Positions 1 to 9,825 of a stretch of 13,664 nt of DNA are shown here, in pieces (the stretch's first letter is position 1; each line of letters opens with the position of its first letter). The position numbers and the translations under genes were made by a program. Source of the DNA: an uncultured archaeon (GTDB lineage Archaea > Asgardarchaeota > Heimdallarchaeia > Heimdallarchaeales > Heimdallarchaeaceae); contig CAZHRF010000061.1 of NCBI GenBank assembly GCA_964534625.1, forward strand, positions 807 through 14,470. Direction: 5' to 3'. Under the pieces are notes generated by a model. The model was not told the origin of the DNA. It saw only the letters and a list, made by a program, of their open reading frames with translations, and did not search any database.

Positions 1-245
1 CTTCGTCACCATCTAAAAGCCCATCATCATCCGTATCTGGATTATTTGGGTCTGTATGATAAATAAGTACTTCGTCACCATCTAAAAGCCCATCATCATC
101 CGTATCTGGATTATTTGGGTCTGTTTTTGTATTATAAATCTCAATATTATCATCAAGCCCATCATCATCTGTATCTTTGCGTGTCGGATCAGTATTATAT
201 GTAATTATTTCAATAAAGTCATCAATACCATCTCCGTCTTGATCT
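1..245 (-). repeat. Intragenic 69-bp (23-aa) tandem repeat encoding DxDxDG Ca-binding units
   Basis: Positions 1-55 are identical to 70-124 (period 69). Two more diverged units (DTDDDGLDDNIEI, DQDGDGIDDFIEI) lie at about 140-245. Confidence 0.9.
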
Positions 246-1777
246 CCATGAGCTACGGGATAAATATCAGTGCTGTTAGCACTACCTTCAATTGTGTAAT
301 TAGTTGTCCCAGAATAATCAGACCAATAGTTGCCTGTCTGTTCAGTTACATCATACCAGGTGTTATTTGTAGACTCATCAACCGCTGTATGAGAATATTG
401 ATCTACTAAGAAGATATTATGATGAATGATGTTGTGATCGCTAGACATATAAATTTTTAGCCCCCATGCGCCATTATCAAAAGTATTTTCGACTATCTCA
501 TTTGTACAAGAGTGAGATATAAGTTTCATTGCAAATAGTTGTGTATTCTTGATGTGATTATGTTTTATGCTATTTTGATGAGATTGCTCCAAATATATTC
601 CACGATAATAATTTCCGTAAAGATAGCAATTTTCTATAAAACTATTATTTGTCATAAAAAGACCTATTCCTTGCCAGTAATTATCCCTACTAATTACATT
701 TTTCACACGAATATAAGTGGATTCCCAGATTCTTACGCCACCGTTTAGGTTGTTGTAATAAAGCGAATCTTCTACATAAATGGAGGTACTATGATACAGC
801 TTGATGCTTGAAGCATTAAATGAATCATCATAATTATTAGTTATAGTTACAGATAGACAGTCTACTAATATTAGATGACCTACTGTTTGTGTTAAAGTTG
901 TGAATGAAACCCCATAGATTAATTGTACTTCTTCTCCGTTAATAGTTGTATTAACAAACGAAATTGTCTCCATATACGTTTTTTCGCCATATAACAATAT
1001 ATCATCATTTAGTACGCAATTAGTGACGTCTAGATTATCTGATGTAGATGCAGTTATTCCTGCGTCGTAGTTATCGACAAAATCACAGAAGGTTATCTGG
1101 CCGTGACTTGAAGAACTAAAGTAGATCCCTTTTCTATTAAGCTCGAAGTAAGAATGGCTAATTATTACATTAGACGAACTATGGCAGTAAATGCCAAAAT
1201 ATAAATCATTGTTAAAGAGAATACTTTCATGTACAATAGCATAATGAGCAGCAATAAGGGCAATACCGGCATAAAAATTGTCAGAACTATAACACTCCTC
1301 AATCATTACATTATCAGAATCGAAGATATAAAAGCCATAATAATAATCAGATGCTGAAACCAACTCAATAGTTGCAGTACCGTCCGCAACATAATCTAAG
1401 TATAATCCTTTTTGATTAATTCCGCTTGTACTATAATTACCAATCAGTAAACAATCCCTTATTACAAAATGAGCTGTTGTTTGACTGATAACTATTGCGT
1501 CGGGAGATTCTATGCGCCATCCTTCTATAATATACGGATTAGATTCTGTTCCATTACCTGAGACTACGCCATTAGTACTATTAAATTCTGAATCAGAGGT
1601 AATAGAAATGGGATCATGATCGGTATATGTTGTTGTGAAGATTTTCTCACTATTCCGGGAACTAGTAGCATCAATTGTTACACTTCCCTTTGCAGTTACA
1701 TTTGTATTCTGATAGGTAAAAATACCAGAAAAAACTAAAAGAGTCATAGCTATGAAGATTAATTGTTTTTTTCTCAT
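1..1777 (-). CDS. Secreted/surface protein with right-handed parallel beta-helix (NosD/CASH-like) region followed by acidic Ca-binding DTDDDGL (TSP3-like) repeats; 3' end runs off the window
   Basis: ATG at 1777-1775 gives MRKKQLIFIAMTLLVFSGIF (signal-peptide-like), then HDPISITSDSEF...SGNGTESNPYIIEGW, GNYWSDY and repeats TDPNNPDTDDDGLLDGDEV. The same frame reads at both ends. Its absence from the ORF track is consistent with no stop inside the window. Confidence 0.85.
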   Translation of the reverse strand, partial: MRKKQLIFIAMTLLVFSGIFTYQNTNVTAKGSVTIDATSSRNSEKIFTTTYTDHDPISITSDSEFNSTNGVVSGNGTESNPYIIEGWRIESPDAIVISQTTAHFVIRDCLLIGNYSTSGINQKGLYLDYVADGTATIELVSASDYYYGFYIFDSDNVMIEECYSSDNFYAGIALIAAHYAIVHESILFNNDLYFGIYCHSSSNVIISHSYFELNRKGIYFSSSSHGQITFCDFVDNYDAGITASTSDNLDVTNCVLNDDILLYGEKTYMETISFVNTTINGEEVQLIYGVSFTTLTQTVGHLILVDCLSVTITNNYDDSFNASSIKLYHSTSIYVEDSLYYNNLNGGVRIWESTYIRVKNVISRDNYWQGIGLFMTNNSFIENCYLYGNYYRGIYLEQSHQNSIKHNHIKNTQLFAMKLISHSCTNEIVENTFDNGAWGLKIYMSSDHNIIHHNIFLVDQYSHTAVDESTNNTWYDVTEQTGNYWSDYSGTTNYTIEGSANSTDIYPVAHGDQDGDGIDDFIEIITYNTDPTRKDTDDDGLDDNIEIYNTKTDPNNPDTDDDGLLDGDEVLIYHTDPNNPDTDDDGLLDGDE

Positions 1778-2971: not shown

Positions 2972-3162
2972 GGGTGAACGTACTCCTTTATAAATAACGT
3001 GAAAATGACTAGAAAAGTGAATCAAAAAGGGAGAAAAAAGAAAAAATGAGTGAAGAAAAAAATAAGGTAAAAATAAGAATGGGGACGTAGGAAAACTGTA
3101 GAAGAGAGAAAGGGAAGAGATGATACGGAAATGTTGGTTGTTTCCACACTGGGAAAAACAAG
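2972..3162 (+). repeat. Left arm of long inverted repeat
   Basis: GTGAACGTACTCCTTTATAAA (2974-2994) is the exact reverse complement of 4211-4231. Collinear matching blocks continue (GTGAAAATGAC, AGAAAAGTGAATCAAAAA, GAGAGAAAG, ATGATACnGAAATGTT, ACACTGGGAAnAACAAG) to 3162. Confidence 0.92.
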
Positions 3163-3301
3163 GGATAACTAAGGAAAACACAACAAACTAGTGTAATAGA
3201 CATAGATGGACTGGATCAATAGTTTATGATAAATAGAGTTTTATTGGCACATGCATACCATTCAGTTTTACTTTTTATCTTTATGTAAATAATACTATGG
3301 T

Positions 3302-3368
3302 TGCTTAGAGTGAAATACAACAAAAATCTGTTGCGCTAGAAAAGACCGCAACAAAAAACTGTTGCATT
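3302..3368. repeat. Block 1: TGCTTAGAGTGAAAT followed by two palindromic units (GCAACA-N6-TGTTGC) at 31-bp period
   Basis: Units start at 3317 and 3348. Confidence 0.9.
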
Positions 3369-3474
3369 TATCTTAGATTGTCTTATTCAACATCATAGCG
3401 CAAATGGAAATGTTTCATTTTTTCTAATTGTAATCAAGTTCAAAATGTCATTTGCATTTTAATAATATTAGAAC

Positions 3475-3571
3475 TGCTTAGAGTGAAATGCAACAAAAAT
3501 CTGTTGCGCTAGAAAAAAACGCAACAAAAAACTGTTGCGCTAGGAAAAAACGCAATAAAAAACTGTTGCAT
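3475..3571. repeat. Block 2: same TGCTTAGAGTGAAAT head followed by three palindromic units at 31-bp period
   Basis: Units start at 3490, 3521 and 3552. The block is a direct repeat of block 1, offset by 173 bp. Confidence 0.9.
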
Positions 3572-3645
3572 CCAGAGATGAAGGCATGAGAAGGAACGAG
3601 AAGAAAGAAAAAAGGAAGAGGGGAAGGGGAGTGTTTCTTCATCAG

Positions 3646-3653
3646 TTTATATA
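3646..3653 (+). promoter_or_regulatory. TATA box for the Cas1-like ORF
   Basis: TTTATATA ends 26 nt before ATG 3679. Confidence 0.5.
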
Positions 3654-3678
3654 GCTGACTCACCTTATAGTAGGTACA

Positions 3679-3993
3679 ATGAAAGAAGTTGTATATATCA
3701 AATCATATGAAAAACCTATAGTCAGATATGGAAAGGTACTAGTTAAATCCAAAGACGGGGATAGAGAATATGAACCTGAAGAGATACACTCACTTGTTGT
3801 GGCATATCCAACCACTTCACAAGTAACAACAGACATTACAACAGTATTTGCTCTTACCAAGAGAAATATACCGATCTATTGGCTTGATGAAAAAAACAAC
3901 TATAGATTTATGGTGTGTACAATAGGACAACAAGATATAGTCAATGGGAAGATGGTGATCAAAATGATACTTCTTTTTCGAGTAAACCATTAA
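3679..3993 (+). CDS. Small protein resembling the N-terminal beta domain of Cas1; lacks the catalytic helical domain
   Basis: VYI...VLVKSKDGDREYEPEEIHSLVV...VTTD...ALTKRNIPIYWLDEKNNYRF follows the Cas1 N-terminal pattern (l.v......iP.e.I..iv.....sitt.....l....Ipi.fld..g.y). Recognised by eye only, with no HMM run. Confidence 0.6.
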   Translation: MKEVVYIKSYEKPIVRYGKVLVKSKDGDREYEPEEIHSLVVAYPTTSQVTTDITTVFALTKRNIPIYWLDEKNNYRFMVCTIGQQDIVNGKMVIKMILLFRVNH

Positions 3994-4042
3994 ATAATTA
4001 TTTAGAAAAACTCAATTCAGATCTCTAGTTTAAATTTTATAT

Positions 4043-4233
4043 CTTGTTCTTCCCAGTGTAAAAACATAGAACATTTCAGTATCATTTCTTCGCTTTCTCT
4101 CGTTTACATCTTCCCTACGCCCTCATTATTATTTTCACCTATTTTTTTCTTGCTTATTTTTCTCTCTTTTCTCCCTTTTTTGATTCACTTTTCTCGTCAT
4201 TTTCACTGTGTTTATAAAGGAGTACGTTCACTC
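4043..4233 (-). repeat. Right arm of long inverted repeat
   Basis: Reverse complement aligns collinearly with 2972-3162. Confidence 0.92.
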
Positions 4234-4247
4234 ATTTAGGGGTATAA

Positions 4248-4541
4248 ATGAAAGATATTGAAACAATAACAAAAATATTACTGGCTAATAAAAAACAACT
4301 TCAAATTGACTACAATGTTGAAGAAATTGGTGTTTTTGGTTCTTACGTTCGCGAAGAGCAATGCTATTCTAGTGATATTGATATTTTAGTCACTTTTAGT
4401 AAACCTATTGGAATGTTTAAATTTCTTGAATTAGAAGAATATCTGTCTTCTTTACTTGGATTACAAGTTGATTTGGTTTCTAAAAAAGCTTTGAAGCCTA
4501 AAATTGGTCAACACATCTTAGAAGAGGTATTAATAATTTGA
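4248..4541 (+). CDS. MNT nucleotidyltransferase antitoxin (MntA-like)
   Basis: GVFGSYVREEQCYSSDIDILV motif; VDLVSKKALKPKI; 4-nt overlap with the DUF86 gene. Confidence 0.92.
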   Translation: MKDIETITKILLANKKQLQIDYNVEEIGVFGSYVREEQCYSSDIDILVTFSKPIGMFKFLELEEYLSSLLGLQVDLVSKKALKPKIGQHILEEVLII

Positions 4542-4876
4542 AGCGTGAGCATTACGATTTCATTAAAGATATTCATGATTCTATTTTAGATATAGCTGAT
4601 TTTACAGCTAATCTAACTTATGAAGAATTTATCGGAGATAAAAAAACAGTCAATGCAGTTATTCGTAGTCTAGAAATAATAGGTGAAGCGTCAAAAAAGA
4701 TTCCTCCTACAATTAGAGAGAAAAATACGGATATACCTTGGAGATTGATGGCAAAAATGAGAGATAAGCTTATTCATCATTATCATGGGGTCGATTTAGA
4801 TATTATCTGGGTTGTTGTCACAGAAGATTTGCATCCATTAGAGGAAGCTATTAAGAAATTGCTAGCTGAACTATAA
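4538..4876 (+). CDS. HepT-like (DUF86) HEPN ribonuclease toxin
   Basis: AVIRSLEIIGEA...IPW...MRDKLIHHY contains the R-x4-H-x-Y motif. Confidence 0.92.
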   Translation: MKREHYDFIKDIHDSILDIADFTANLTYEEFIGDKKTVNAVIRSLEIIGEASKKIPPTIREKNTDIPWRLMAKMRDKLIHHYHGVDLDIIWVVVTEDLHPLEEAIKKLLAEL

Positions 4877-5195: not shown

Positions 5196-5528
5196 TTAAG
5201 TTAATATGTCCTTTATTGTTTCTTCAAGTTTAGGAACGTGGTTTATTATTACTTCCCAAAGAATTTCAAGATCTATTGAAAAATAAGCATGGATTAGAAT
5301 ATCACGTAATCCTGCAATTTTTCTCCATTCCATATTTTTTTTTTTTCTTTTTACTTCTTCAGGAATATTCTTAACAGCTTCACCAATAACTTCCAAATTT
5401 CTCATCACTGCATCTTGAATTAGAATTTCCGTTGAAAAATCCTCAAAAGATAGATTTTCAGTGTATTTTCTTATTCTTTTAATAGAATGTAAAATGTCTT
5501 CTAGATACAATTTATATTCCCTTGGCAT
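5196..5528 (-). CDS. HepT-like (DUF86) HEPN ribonuclease toxin
   Basis: DAVMRNLEVIGEAVKNIP...WRKIAGLRDILIHAYF contains the R-x4-H-x-Y motif. Confidence 0.93.
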   Translation of the reverse strand: MPREYKLYLEDILHSIKRIRKYTENLSFEDFSTEILIQDAVMRNLEVIGEAVKNIPEEVKRKKKNMEWRKIAGLRDILIHAYFSIDLEILWEVIINHVPKLEETIKDILT

Positions 5529-5823
5529 AGACTACACTACTCAAAATATTCTCTTTTAACGCTGGCTTAATATTCTCTTTAATTACTAAATCTATTGTAA
5601 GGTGAAAAAGATCTTCTAAGAATATTTTTAACCCCATGTAATTATCAAAACTCTTCTTTCCCTCTTTAAATTCTACTATGAAATCAATGTCACTGGAAGA
5701 AATTTGACCGCTTCTGACAAAAGAACCAAATACACCTAACTTTTTCACTCCGTACAACTTAATTTTATCTTTATTCTTCTGTATTATTTCCAAAATATCA
5801 GAAAGTGTTAGGGTCTGTTCCAT
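5512..5823 (-). CDS. MNT nucleotidyltransferase antitoxin (MntA-like)
   Basis: GVKKLGVFGSFVRSGQISSSDIDFIVEF; overlaps the DUF86 gene; upstream BRE/TATA-like CGAAAGTCATATAT on the minus strand (about 5846-5859). Confidence 0.92.
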   Translation of the reverse strand: MEQTLTLSDILEIIQKNKDKIKLYGVKKLGVFGSFVRSGQISSSDIDFIVEFKEGKKSFDNYMGLKIFLEDLFHLTIDLVIKENIKPALKENILSSVVYAKGI

Positions 5824-6222: not shown

Positions 6223-7398
6223 ATGATTCTATATAAAAAAAGCGTAAAAAAAGATTTTGGAAATACCTTACCTATATTAGCCAAGGCTATAAAAGAAGTA
6301 ATACTAATATCACCAATAATACTTGAGTTGGGTAATCAACAACTAACAGAACTGATTAAGTCTAGATTGTTTGATAGCATTGAACAGAATCAAAGGATAT
6401 GGATTAAAAAGAAAACAGATATTACAAACACACAGATCAATCAACTGCTAACTCAAGGGTTTGGTAAGATTATTTTATCCCATGAACTGTACATTAAGAA
6501 TAAATTATCGATACCTCTATCAAGAGTTTGCATTGAGGTCAATGGAAAATACTTGGGAGAGGACAGTACTAGGATAGGATTACCTCCCACTATTCCTTTG
6601 ATCATTACAAATCCTGGTACACAATTTGAAGAAAAGTTGAGCTTAGACGAACTATATTCTTTGTTGACTAAACTGTCTAATCCACTCATAATCGATGTTA
6701 CCTCGGTAGATGTTGAAAAGAATCGATTAATTTCTTTAGTGCGTCAAGGAATAAGAATAATCAAAGATTTTGACCCTCTTATTCCAATAGTCGATTACGC
6801 GAAAGAAAACAGTGATTTTTTAGACTTTTTCAAGGGAAATGGTTTGATACCAACAATCGTGCAAGATGGGAGTAAAAACATCTTAATGCTCGCTTATTCG
6901 ACCACTGAATCTTTTTTTAAGACAGTAAAGACAAAATGTGCTACATATTTCAGTAGAAGTAGGAATAAGTTATGGGTTAAAGGAGAAACATCTGGAAATG
7001 TACAAAAAATCGTTCAGATTGCGTATGATTGTGATGGTGACACATTGCTATATACGGTTAAACAACAAGGTGTAGCATGCCATACAAATAGTTACTCTTG
7101 TTTTAATATAGAACCATTTGGTCTAGAAACCCTTTACAGCTTAATAAAACAACGACAAGAACAACCATCAGCATATGACCGTTCTCAGCCTACTTCATTT
7201 ACTGTTAAACTGCTAGAAAATATTGATTTGTTAAAATCAAAAATAATTGAAGAAGCAAAAGAAGTAGTAAATTTTACTGATCGAGAAAATCTGATCTGGG
7301 AATTAGCTGATCTCTCCTACTTTTTACTAGTTTTGATGGTGAAGAACAATATAACTTTGACAGAAGTTAAGAATGAACTCTGGAGAAGAAGAAAATGA
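6223..7398 (+). CDS. hisIE: Bifunctional PR-AMP cyclohydrolase / PR-ATP diphosphatase with a ~200-aa N-terminal extension (alternative start TTG 6196)
   Basis: YFSRSRNKLWVKGETSGN, DCDGDTL and ACHTNSYSCF (HisI); KIIEEAKEV and WELADLSYF (HisE); AGGAGA SD 7 nt before ATG 6223. Confidence 0.92.
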   Translation: MILYKKSVKKDFGNTLPILAKAIKEVILISPIILELGNQQLTELIKSRLFDSIEQNQRIWIKKKTDITNTQINQLLTQGFGKIILSHELYIKNKLSIPLSRVCIEVNGKYLGEDSTRIGLPPTIPLIITNPGTQFEEKLSLDELYSLLTKLSNPLIIDVTSVDVEKNRLISLVRQGIRIIKDFDPLIPIVDYAKENSDFLDFFKGNGLIPTIVQDGSKNILMLAYSTTESFFKTVKTKCATYFSRSRNKLWVKGETSGNVQKIVQIAYDCDGDTLLYTVKQQGVACHTNSYSCFNIEPFGLETLYSLIKQRQEQPSAYDRSQPTSFTVKLLENIDLLKSKIIEEAKEVVNFTDRENLIWELADLSYFLLVLMVKNNITLTEVKNELWRRRK

Positions 7399-8432
7399 AT
7401 CAAATAAATCGAATACTATCCTACAAACAAGGAATAAATAAGGAAGAATCAAAGCCTATACGTTTAGCTCTCCCTTCAAAAGGGCGAATGCAAGACGAAA
7501 CACAAGTTTTTTTGAAGAATTGTGGTTTTACAATTACGCGAAAAAACCGTCAATATATTGGTTATCTATCAGGTTTTGAGGATGAAATGGTACTAGTTTA
7601 TAACAGACAAAAAGATATCATTAGAGGCATTGTTCATGGTTCTATTGATATGGCTATTGTTGGATATGATCTAGTATGTGAATTTGTAAAGGATTTATCC
7701 AAGATTGTAGTCATTCACGAAGCATTGGGATTTGGAGATTGTTCTCTTGCTCTAGCTGTTCCAGAGACATGGGAAATAGATGATATTACTGATCTTCAAC
7801 AGAGAGATGGCAAACTTAGAGTTGCCACCAAATTTCCCCTCCTAACAACAAAGTTTCTTAACGAGAATAATCTTAAATATGAACTAATACAAGGGGAAGG
7901 TTCGCTTGAAGTGTATCCTGCACTAGATTATGCTGATGTTATTGTAGATCTTGTTTCTACAGGTCAGACTCTTAAAGATAATAGACTCAAGCAAATAAAT
8001 GGAGGAACAATTTTAGAATCTGAAGCTGTATTTATTGGTAAGATCCAATCTTTAAAAAAACCTGGTGTTTTACGAGTTGCCCAAGAGTTATTAGAATATT
8101 TTGAAGCTAGATTAAGAGCAGAGAGATATGTTTCGTTATATGCTAATATGAGAGGCAATTCTCCTGAAAAAATAGTCCAAAAAATGTTCAATCAAGATGG
8201 TTTGGCAGGTTTAGATGGTCCCACTATTTCTCCTATTATTAATAAATCTGGAGAAAAAATGTTTGCTGTTCATATCATTGTAGAACGACAAAACCTTCAG
8301 AATGCTATTAAAGATTTACGTAAAATAGGTGGAAGCGGAGTGGTTGTTAGTCCTGCTTTGTACATTTTCGAAGAAGAACCTGTAAGGTATAAAAAATTGA
8401 TTAAGCGAGTAGGAGTGGAAAGTGATGATTAG
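7395..8432 (+). CDS. hisG: ATP phosphoribosyltransferase, long form
   Basis: RLALPSKGRM, RVATKFP, GSLEVYPALDYADVIVDLVSTGQTLKDNRL, and a C-terminal regulatory domain with GLDGPTISP. Confidence 0.96.
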   Translation: MNQINRILSYKQGINKEESKPIRLALPSKGRMQDETQVFLKNCGFTITRKNRQYIGYLSGFEDEMVLVYNRQKDIIRGIVHGSIDMAIVGYDLVCEFVKDLSKIVVIHEALGFGDCSLALAVPETWEIDDITDLQQRDGKLRVATKFPLLTTKFLNENNLKYELIQGEGSLEVYPALDYADVIVDLVSTGQTLKDNRLKQINGGTILESEAVFIGKIQSLKKPGVLRVAQELLEYFEARLRAERYVSLYANMRGNSPEKIVQKMFNQDGLAGLDGPTISPIINKSGEKMFAVHIIVERQNLQNAIKDLRKIGGSGVVVSPALYIFEEEPVRYKKLIKRVGVESDD

Positions 8433-9825
8433 TCTCTATACCAAAAAAGAAGCTCAACAGACAATCCTTAAACGTAAAAGTATATTGGATGTGGAATTGC
8501 CAGAAAGGCTAAAAAAAGGGATAAAGGAGCTGTTTGGAAGAGATTTAACTGCTCAAGAAGTAGTACTAGAGATTATTGCTGATGTTAGAAATCAAGGAGA
8601 TCCAGCTTTAATTAAATGGACAAGACTCTTAGATAAAGTCGAGTTGTCTTCTTTAGAAATATCGCCTAAAAAGATAGAAGAATCGCTTACATTAATAAAA
8701 TCCTCTGTTCTGCAAGCTCTAAGACTAGCAAGAGATAGGATACGGGCATTCCACGAAAATCAACCTATTAAGACTTGGATGCAAAATGATATGCAGTTAG
8801 GACAGATAGTACGACCAATAGAAAAAGTTGGAATTTATGTACCAGGTGGTACTGCTCCTTTACCTTCAACAGTCCTTATGTGTTCTATTCCCGCTATTGT
8901 TGCAGGTTCGAGTAAACTAGTGATTTGTTCTCCACCGAATAAAAAAGGCAAAATGGATCCAACTATACTAGCTGCTTGTCAGCTGTTAAAGGAATTAGAT
9001 GTTGAAGTAAGAGTCTATATGCTAGGCGGAGCTCAAGCTATAGCTGCTATGGCATATGGAACAAAGCAAGTAGATGCAGTAGATAAAATAGTTGGACCTG
9101 GAAATATTTTTGTCAGCTTAGCCAAAAAAGAAGTCTATGGGCAAGTAGGAATAGATGGGATCTATGGACCGACTGAAGCTATGCTTCTTGCTGATGAAAG
9201 TGCCTCAAGTTCTCTTCTTGCTGCTGATTTGTTAGCTCAAGCAGAACATGATATGCTGTCAATACCAATTATGGTAACTACTTCAGCAAAATTGGCCAAA
9301 GCTGTCAAAGAAGAAGTTGAAAAACAGATTCAATTTCTTGAAAGAGAAGATATAGCCAAATATAGTATGGAAAATCAAGGAGGTATAGTGATAACCCCTA
9401 CAATTGAAGAAGCAGTAGAAGTTTGTAATAATTTTGCACCAGAGCACTTGTCGATAATAACAAAAGATAATTGGGCAATCATTCCAAAAATAAGGAATGC
9501 TGGCGGTATTTTTGTGGGTGAATATAGCTGTGAGGTAATTGGTGATTATATTGCGGGTCCCTCACACACCATGCCAACGAATGGTACAGCAAAATTTTCT
9601 TCAGCCTTATCCGTCTATGATTTTGTCAAATTTATAAATTTGATAGCTCTTGATAAGAAAACATCAATGGAATTGGCAAAAGGGGCTAAAATAATTGCAA
9701 AAGAAGAAAAATTAGGTGGTCACGCTAATGCAGCTAAACAAAGGATCGAGAAAAAGAAAAAACAAGATCAAACCAATAATAAACTTTCAGGAGGTTTTGG
9801 TTATGCCCAAGCAAGTATTCACTAG
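8422..9825 (+). CDS. hisD: Histidinol dehydrogenase
   Basis: VGIYVPGG, GGAQAIAAMAYGT, DKIVGPGNIFV, GPTE, QAEHD, APEHL, GDYIAGPSHTMPT. Confidence 0.97.
   Translation: MMISLYTKKEAQQTILKRKSILDVELPERLKKGIKELFGRDLTAQEVVLEIIADVRNQGDPALIKWTRLLDKVELSSLEISPKKIEESLTLIKSSVLQALRLARDRIRAFHENQPIKTWMQNDMQLGQIVRPIEKVGIYVPGGTAPLPSTVLMCSIPAIVAGSSKLVICSPPNKKGKMDPTILAACQLLKELDVEVRVYMLGGAQAIAAMAYGTKQVDAVDKIVGPGNIFVSLAKKEVYGQVGIDGIYGPTEAMLLADESASSSLLAADLLAQAEHDMLSIPIMVTTSAKLAKAVKEEVEKQIQFLEREDIAKYSMENQGGIVITPTIEEAVEVCNNFAPEHLSIITKDNWAIIPKIRNAGGIFVGEYSCEVIGDYIAGPSHTMPTNGTAKFSSALSVYDFVKFINLIALDKKTSMELAKGAKIIAKEEKLGGHANAAKQRIEKKKKQDQTNNKLSGGFGYAQASIH

Follow-up and report, generated by a model that had tools for sequence, protein, structure and literature searches.

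Casposons are the presumed source of the Cas1 of CRISPR immunity. They are self-synthesising elements of 8-20 kb with a gene for a family B polymerase and with target-site duplications at their flanks (PMC9939771). Families 1-4 (Krupovic et al. 2014, PMC4046053) are found in archaea, have terminal inverted repeats (TIRs) as their bounds and are presumed to use a Cas1 homologue as integrase, traits that recur in an element described below from relatives of the archaeon under study. A second point of reference is the Cas1 of CRISPR adaptation in the same archaea (recognised by the PADLOC Cas1 and Cas1b profiles; cas1-cas2 on contig C85 of this genome), which equals the mobile Cas1 in length and catalytic residues, whereas the mobile gene has no adjacent cas2, cas4, cas6 or array and lies alone between TIRs, in multiple copies and varied contexts. 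Insertion sequences with solo ends and MITE-like derivatives are likewise small, with one gene, TIRs, many copies and decayed, non-autonomous derivatives, and show the same adjacent deletions and inversions as the Cas1 element. They differ from it in that its gene is a Cas1 rather than a DDE, HUH, serine or tyrosine transposase and in that it has no target-site duplication.

Papers that cite Makarova et al. 2020 (CRISPR J) credit it with a great diversity of Asgard Cas1 homologues, part of which may belong to novel mobile elements (PMC8730458, PMC9939771); as cited there, these homologues share with the Cas1-only family the phylum and the idea of novel mobile elements. An element of the form TIR-cas1-TIR is not described in the literature searched, in which Makarova et al. 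2020 is represented by the papers citing it. The window analysed here is a stretch of 13,664 nucleotides from an uncultured archaeon of the Heimdallarchaeaceae, and its segment 2972-4233 is probably decayed and non-autonomous, a member of an insertion-sequence-like family that has cas1 as its only gene and occurs in this family of Heimdall-group archaea.

Architecture of segment 2972-4233

The segment is arranged from its left to its right terminus as follows.

2972-3168 (+): left arm, read from outer edge to inside, with the terminus GGGTGAAC at 2972-2979
2987-2994 (+): TATA-like sequence TTTATAAA of the left arm
3169-3262 (+): inner extension of the left-arm unit, common to the copies on contigs C6 and C8 and absent from the right arm
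3317-3365: palindrome cluster 1, two 18-bp units (A/G)CAACA-N6-TGTTGC with a 31-bp period
3490-3569: palindrome cluster 2, three units with a 31-bp period
3589-3632 (+): purine-rich tract, read from the sequence
3646-3653 (+): TATA-like sequence TTTATATA, 25 nt ahead of the ORF104 ATG, read from the sequence
3679-3993 (+): ORF104, 104 aa, a stand-alone Cas1 N-terminal domain without the catalytic C-terminal domain
4037-4233 (-): right arm, read from outer edge to inside, with the terminus at 4233-4226
4211-4218: TATA-like sequence of the right arm, 29 nt ahead of the start of the neighbouring MNT gene (4248)

The repeat search of the window returns the arms at 2974-3168 and 4037-4231 as a 195-nt inverted repeat with 78% complementarity and a spacing of 868 nt, and blastn aligns arm with arm at 84% over 197 nt (E 1e-52). 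The inverted arms and their perfect outer 21 bp, both claimed in the preliminary description, are thus confirmed, with bounds slightly revised to 2972/2974-3168 and 4037-4231/4233; the outer 21 nt read GTGAACGTACTCCTTTATAAA (2974-2994 on the left) in both arms. The terminus has the layout GGTGAAC-N7-TTTATAA, and inward of the TATA-like box of the left arm lie three to four GTGAA motifs followed by a 75% purine tract, which is also the purine content of the arms. Alignment of the copies extends the left-arm family unit to about 3262. A small peptide encoded in the arm was considered and rejected because its ATG varies among copies.

Between the arms the same description had seen a repeat region and one 104-aa ORF, with neither transposase nor polymerase, and this holds: the ORF list and the domain search contain no transposase or polymerase ORF inside 2972-4233, that of a family B DNA polymerase included. 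The absence of a target-site duplication likewise stands, with a best flank match of 7/12. Compared with a casposon the segment has TIRs, in the form of the 195-nt arms, without a full-length casposase, PolB or a target-site duplication.

The repeat region (3264-3569) places two and then three copies of the 18-bp palindrome GCAACA-N6-TGTTGC upstream of ORF104, chained, as in cluster 1, with GTTGCG-N11-CGCAAC, and no further exact copy of the palindrome exists in the genome. On the minus strand the cluster 2 units read as a hairpin plus a T-run, and palindromes of this terminator-like kind are found on the minus strand only (5 against 0.4 expected). The region 3589-3653, which ends with TTTATATA, is a putative promoter of ORF104 itself. 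The genome has 32% G+C and encodes TBP.

ORF104 matches eight PADLOC Cas1 profiles in register, the best (E 2.2e-7) aligning residues 4-94 with profile positions 3-86 of 285. The NCBIfam family TIGR00287 is matched at E 0.0013 and Pfam Cas_Cas1 at a sub-threshold E of 0.015. In every one of these matches residues 4-94 fall on about the first 86 positions of the profile. The language-model neighbours of the protein are Cas1 N-terminal fragments. From the profile matches and these neighbours ORF104 is assigned as a Cas1 N-terminal domain without the catalytic domain, in agreement with the original call of a Cas1 N-terminal-like ORF. Single-sequence searches of the phmmer type recover only ORF104 itself in collections of 5.8 billion and 1.8 billion proteins. 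An AlphaFold model of ORF104 alone reaches a pLDDT of 42 and was set aside as unfit for a fold search.

Three pairs of MNT/HEPN (HepT) toxin-antitoxin genes occupy a stretch of less than 4 kb around the element (1938-2658, 4248-4876 and 5196-5823); the other neighbours of the segment in the window are a gene for a beta-helix protein and the his operon. Further MNT/HepT pairs adjoin arm copies on contigs C49 and C14.

The Cas1-only element of related archaea

The complete element of the relatives, found in their genomes and in metagenomes, is about 1.53 kb long with TIRs of about 60 bp and one intact 326-aa cas1. The TIRs start with GGT(C/T)AAC-N7-TTTATAA and are followed by a purine-rich leader, a TATA-like box, cas1 and a chain of overlapping short palindromes. 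On contig C36 of genome G001 a frameshift splits the cas1, and a 61-nt inverted repeat (89% identity) on either side of the gene bounds an element of 1538 bp. The C-terminal part of this gene leads to intact 326-aa proteins 82-91% identical to it, whose 90%-identity clusters hold 9 and 11 sequences. Five two-ended copies (1520-1527 bp) occur in different contexts, at L115/L116, L117, L118, L119 and in G001, each with the ends GGT(C/T)AAC...GTT(G/A)ACC and with cas1 as the sole gene; neither cas2 nor polB was found near any of the five, and no target-site duplication is present at G001, L115, L117, L118 or L119. Several metagenome contigs are approximately of element size, one of them starting at the terminus. 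A NosD-like beta-helix gene adjoins the element or a stump at four loci (window 2-1777, minus strand; L071:1-1230; L115:3778-5010; L119:1885-3807), which is either chance, the paralogues being abundant, or a preference of the element for the region.

The comparison of copies between genera gives 87% identity for the element, whereas the flanks are 66-75% identical or unalignable except for one 167-nt stretch at 87%. In two genomes the flank is identical up to the terminus and the interior is flipped, and in G014 the flipped interior is also cut off inside cas1, which is the origin of the G014 stump. Stand-alone Cas1 N-terminal stumps of 106 aa (G014) and 129 aa (G006) are truncated forms of full-length mobile cas1 genes, and further broken cas1 copies occur in G016, G005 and G002. 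G001 and G005 contain dozens of solo TIRs and of one-ended pieces derived from the one end or the other, a pattern like that of the window arms. The G001 element itself lies at a rearrangement (L096:1-3603 against 7163-8692, G001:C36; L112, G005:C238): its flanks are 2.1 kb apart in G005, and a 956-aa gene is in part duplicated, at 94% identity, as if a deletion or duplication had accompanied the element. An empty site for the G001 copy was sought in G005 and not obtained, and as the locus is rearranged and duplicated instead it carries no information on target duplication.

The mobile Cas1 retains the catalytic Glu, His and Asp positions in the alignment. Its nearest solved structures are CRISPR Cas1s (E 5e-35), with the Methanosarcina casposase (PDB code 6OPM) at 4e-5. 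The maximum-likelihood tree unites the mobile proteins in a single clade (support 100/100), which falls within the CRISPR Cas1s of these archaea as the sister (support 86/83) of a group that includes the Cas1 of the present genome. The tree is rooted at its midpoint, and for this reason the direction of change is inferred. Judged by sequence, the Cas1 of the family is of the CRISPR type and far from the casposases. The relatives' element (1.5 kb, cas1 as the only gene, no duplication, CRISPR-type Cas1) is not a casposon because it has no PolB and no duplication and its Cas1 is not a casposase, and, as far as the defining traits go, the casposon-like character first proposed for the segment falls on the same grounds, neither PolB nor duplication being present here or in the five intact relatives.

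Arm copies in the genome and their relation to the element ends

Across the whole genome blastn and nhmmer recover about 18 confident arm copies on 15 contigs, nearly all of them solo, so the arms are dispersed in the BLASTN search that the preliminary description had suggested, and not confined to a single locus. Every copy starts at one sharp outer edge, (G)GGTGAAC followed by 7 nt, TTTATAAA, GTGAA motifs and a purine-rich tract, whereas the inner ends are nested, between 40 and about 290 nt from it, and meet gene ends or other repeats. From the exact outer edge inward, the copy on contig C32 matches the left arm at 100% for 102 nt, which argues that a mechanism sets the end and that it is not merely maintained by selection. 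The arm unit has no internal TIR and no duplications, and whereas MITEs are recognised by short two-ended copies, TIRs and duplications, the derivatives here are mostly one-ended. Of the arm pairs in the genome that of the window alone keeps both outer termini, and between its arms lies the one Cas1-like relic that the genome has outside the cas locus. The only full cas1 of the genome is in that locus, on C85: neither a full-length cas1 between window-type arms, for which the preliminary description had proposed to look, nor an autonomous partner is found in this 90%-complete genome. No intact window-type element was found in this genome or the public collections searched; searches of metagenome, genome and viral collections returned neither the arm 21-mer nor the 23-mer core, and 40 relatives likewise lack the arm core sequences. 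No Rfam family matches the arms, the palindromes or a further dispersed repeat of this genome, U71.

U71 is about 71 nt long and consists of a GGTGAC..GTCACC hairpin followed by CTATCCCAAAG and a T-run. It has 43 copies in the genome, some in tandem and often at contig ends (for example C32:34985-35055, equal to L038:2986-3056; C26:15931-16071; C2:141159-141300), and it abuts arms on C32 and C14, where no continuation of the arm was found past the U71 insertion. A 33-nt tandem repeat, TAATGCCTTCAATTTCAACCGTAAACATTTCTG, joins the end of C15 (C15:59936-59990) to the start of C42 (C42:1-124); as it has no spacers it is not a CRISPR.

The window copy and the relatives' element share the terminal layout GGTSAAC-N7-TTTATAA, with 14/21 positions alike at a fixed offset. 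In both a leader rich in purines runs inward, a TATA-like box precedes the gene by about 25 nt and overlapping palindromes form a chain; both lack a target-site duplication and are accompanied by a litter of one-ended copies. Local alignment of the window arms with the ends of the relatives' element (200 nt) gives z values of 0.3-0.8, no better than shuffles, and DNA of the G001-type element was not found in this genome. The link between arms and TIRs is one of architecture and terminal motif, not of significant sequence similarity, and the two are putatively homologous. ORF104 is 28% identical to the G014 stump (E 2e-4), and N-terminal-domain profiles score it at 17.4 bits for the mobile clade against 14.3 and 13.9 bits for CRISPR Cas1, a preference of only 3 bits, so that its placement in the mobile clade is not firm. 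The window arms are alike over 195 nt and the two ends of the relatives' element over only about 60 nt, so the window may contain a face-to-face pair of like ends instead of a single element. The palindromes are upstream of the gene in the window and downstream of it in the relatives. With the shared features weighed against the weak arm alignment, the 3-bit margin, the 195 against about 60 nt and the position of the palindromes, the decayed-member reading is put at probable. Of the earlier view of the segment as an internally deleted or non-autonomous member of a Cas1-mobilised family, putatively moved in trans, what is supported is that a TIR-cas1-TIR family with intact copies exists in relatives, that the arms are dispersed and do not adjoin CRISPR arrays, and that the window copy keeps the N-terminal domain of Cas1 only, as would an internally deleted, non-autonomous copy.

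In the main alternative, which we consider unlikely, the arms would be an unrelated dispersed repeat of intergenic regions, private to this genome and comparable to MITEs or Correia elements, whose TATA box and T-rich, terminator-like tracts lie at opposite sides. The Cas1 ORF would be a relic of separate origin, with a promoter and an operator array of its own, caught by chance between two copies in a junk-rich toxin-antitoxin island. In favour of this alternative nearly all arm copies are solo and stand beside unrelated genes; the inner-side gene reads into the arm in 12/17 copies and the pyrimidine strand is rich in T5-T7 runs; seven copies sit between co-directional genes, like terminator-plus-promoter modules; the genome has another small dispersed repeat in U71; ORF104 has its own TATA-like box and palindromes unique to the locus; and the arm-to-TIR similarity is not significant. 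The orientation bias is weak (12:5), however, and the terminal motif and its spacing match the ends of the Cas1 element, the sole pair with both outer termini encloses the sole Cas1-like relic outside the cas locus, and the Cas1 element of the relatives leaves a litter of solo and one-ended pieces of the same kind.

The TATA-like box that each arm carries 15 nt from its edge, with purine-rich sequence inward, could instead mark duplicated promoter or leader modules that drive convergent transcription over ORF104, sense from the left and antisense from the right, in a regulatory or invertible cassette that is not mobile. The minus-strand bias of the terminator-like palindromes, the arm upstream of the HicB-HicA operon on contig C8 and the flipped interior between identical flanks in the relatives agree with such a cassette. 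It is nevertheless improbable, since the arm TATA has on neither side the A-rich BRE of the tRNA promoters of this genome, most copies have no sense gene downstream and arms no more than 84% alike offer homologous inversion a poor substrate. A role of the arm as a general promoter of downstream genes was not adopted as the principal reading, as there is mostly no sense gene and no BRE of the tRNA-promoter kind. The C8 cassette (L036:2256-3191, equal to C8:35255-36190, minus strand) is the second in the genome to lie between arms and contains HicB-HicA and a 142-aa orphan gene; of its two arms one is of the left type, truncated at the 5' end, and one of the right type, and it looks as if cargo had replaced cas1 behind the inward TATA box of the arm.

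In Methanocaldococcus, copies of CRISPR leaders are dispersed in the genome, and by analogy the arms could be orphan CRISPR leaders and the locus an eroded adaptation module, which we regard as very improbable. The leader beside the sister Cas1 clade begins with a similar layout: in a relative it reads AGGTCGAC-TTTATAAAG followed by a purine-rich tract, and in this genome the 68-nt tail after cas2 and cas6 reads GGGTCACCC-TTTATAAAG. The CRISPR repeat of the genome, GTTTAAGTCAAACTTAGTAGTGTGAAAAT, is found at C103:2-30 and C98:3-31, and from its position at two contig starts the arrays are taken to be unassembled. Against orphan leaders, no CRISPR repeat lies next to any arm copy, copies that always abut arrays being what the preliminary description had named as the sign of leaders; the arm-to-leader similarity is not significant on the left (z 0.8) and weak on the right (z 2.6, 7/300 shuffles as good), the inner ends of the arms meet gene ends or other repeats, and the internal palindromes have no spacers. 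The same 68-nt leader start stands after cas2 (C85:8805-8872) and after a cas6-like gene (C103:4390-4457), and its layout resembles the terminus of the Cas1 element. No significant likeness was found between the TIR termini and the CRISPR repeats of this genome and one relative.

Proposed history of the segment and its meaning

With the segment read as a decayed member of the Cas1-only family, Cas1 is the presumed integrase of the element and would drive its mobility, inserting TIR-ended DNA and leaving no target-site duplication. Known Cas1 integrases do produce a target-site duplication, and its absence counts against this reading. Inversions and deletions starting at the ends would yield the many solo ends and one-ended fragments, and in this genome only debris would be left, about 18 arms and one two-ended copy. 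In the window copy cas1 would have been cut down to the N-terminal dimerisation domain. The stump keeps a promoter-like box and an open frame and may be expressed, and, speculatively, it might interfere with full-length Cas1.

A fuller version of this account is put forward tentatively, as somewhat less likely than not: Heimdall-group archaea would host an undescribed insertion-sequence-like transposon whose sole gene is a CRISPR-type Cas1, an adaptation integrase turned transposase again in the reverse of the passage from casposon to CRISPR, inserting without duplication, and the window would hold a decayed copy whose stump is a possible dominant-negative brake on Cas1. The family may be a new variant-type of Cas1-based mobility, comparable to a minimal insertion sequence with Cas1 as its transposase.

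The window copy is debris, and its value is as a pointer to the family. For annotation, lone cas1 genes or Cas1 fragments in this group need not mean CRISPR loci. If the account is true, the Cas1 N-terminal stumps that stand alone in these Asgard genomes would have an explanation, as would their dispersed arm repeats, and the element would be the simplest natural Cas1-driven integration system, with no Cas2, polymerase or duplication. An element of TIRs and a CRISPR-type cas1 would then show that genes pass from immunity to mobility as well as from mobility to immunity.
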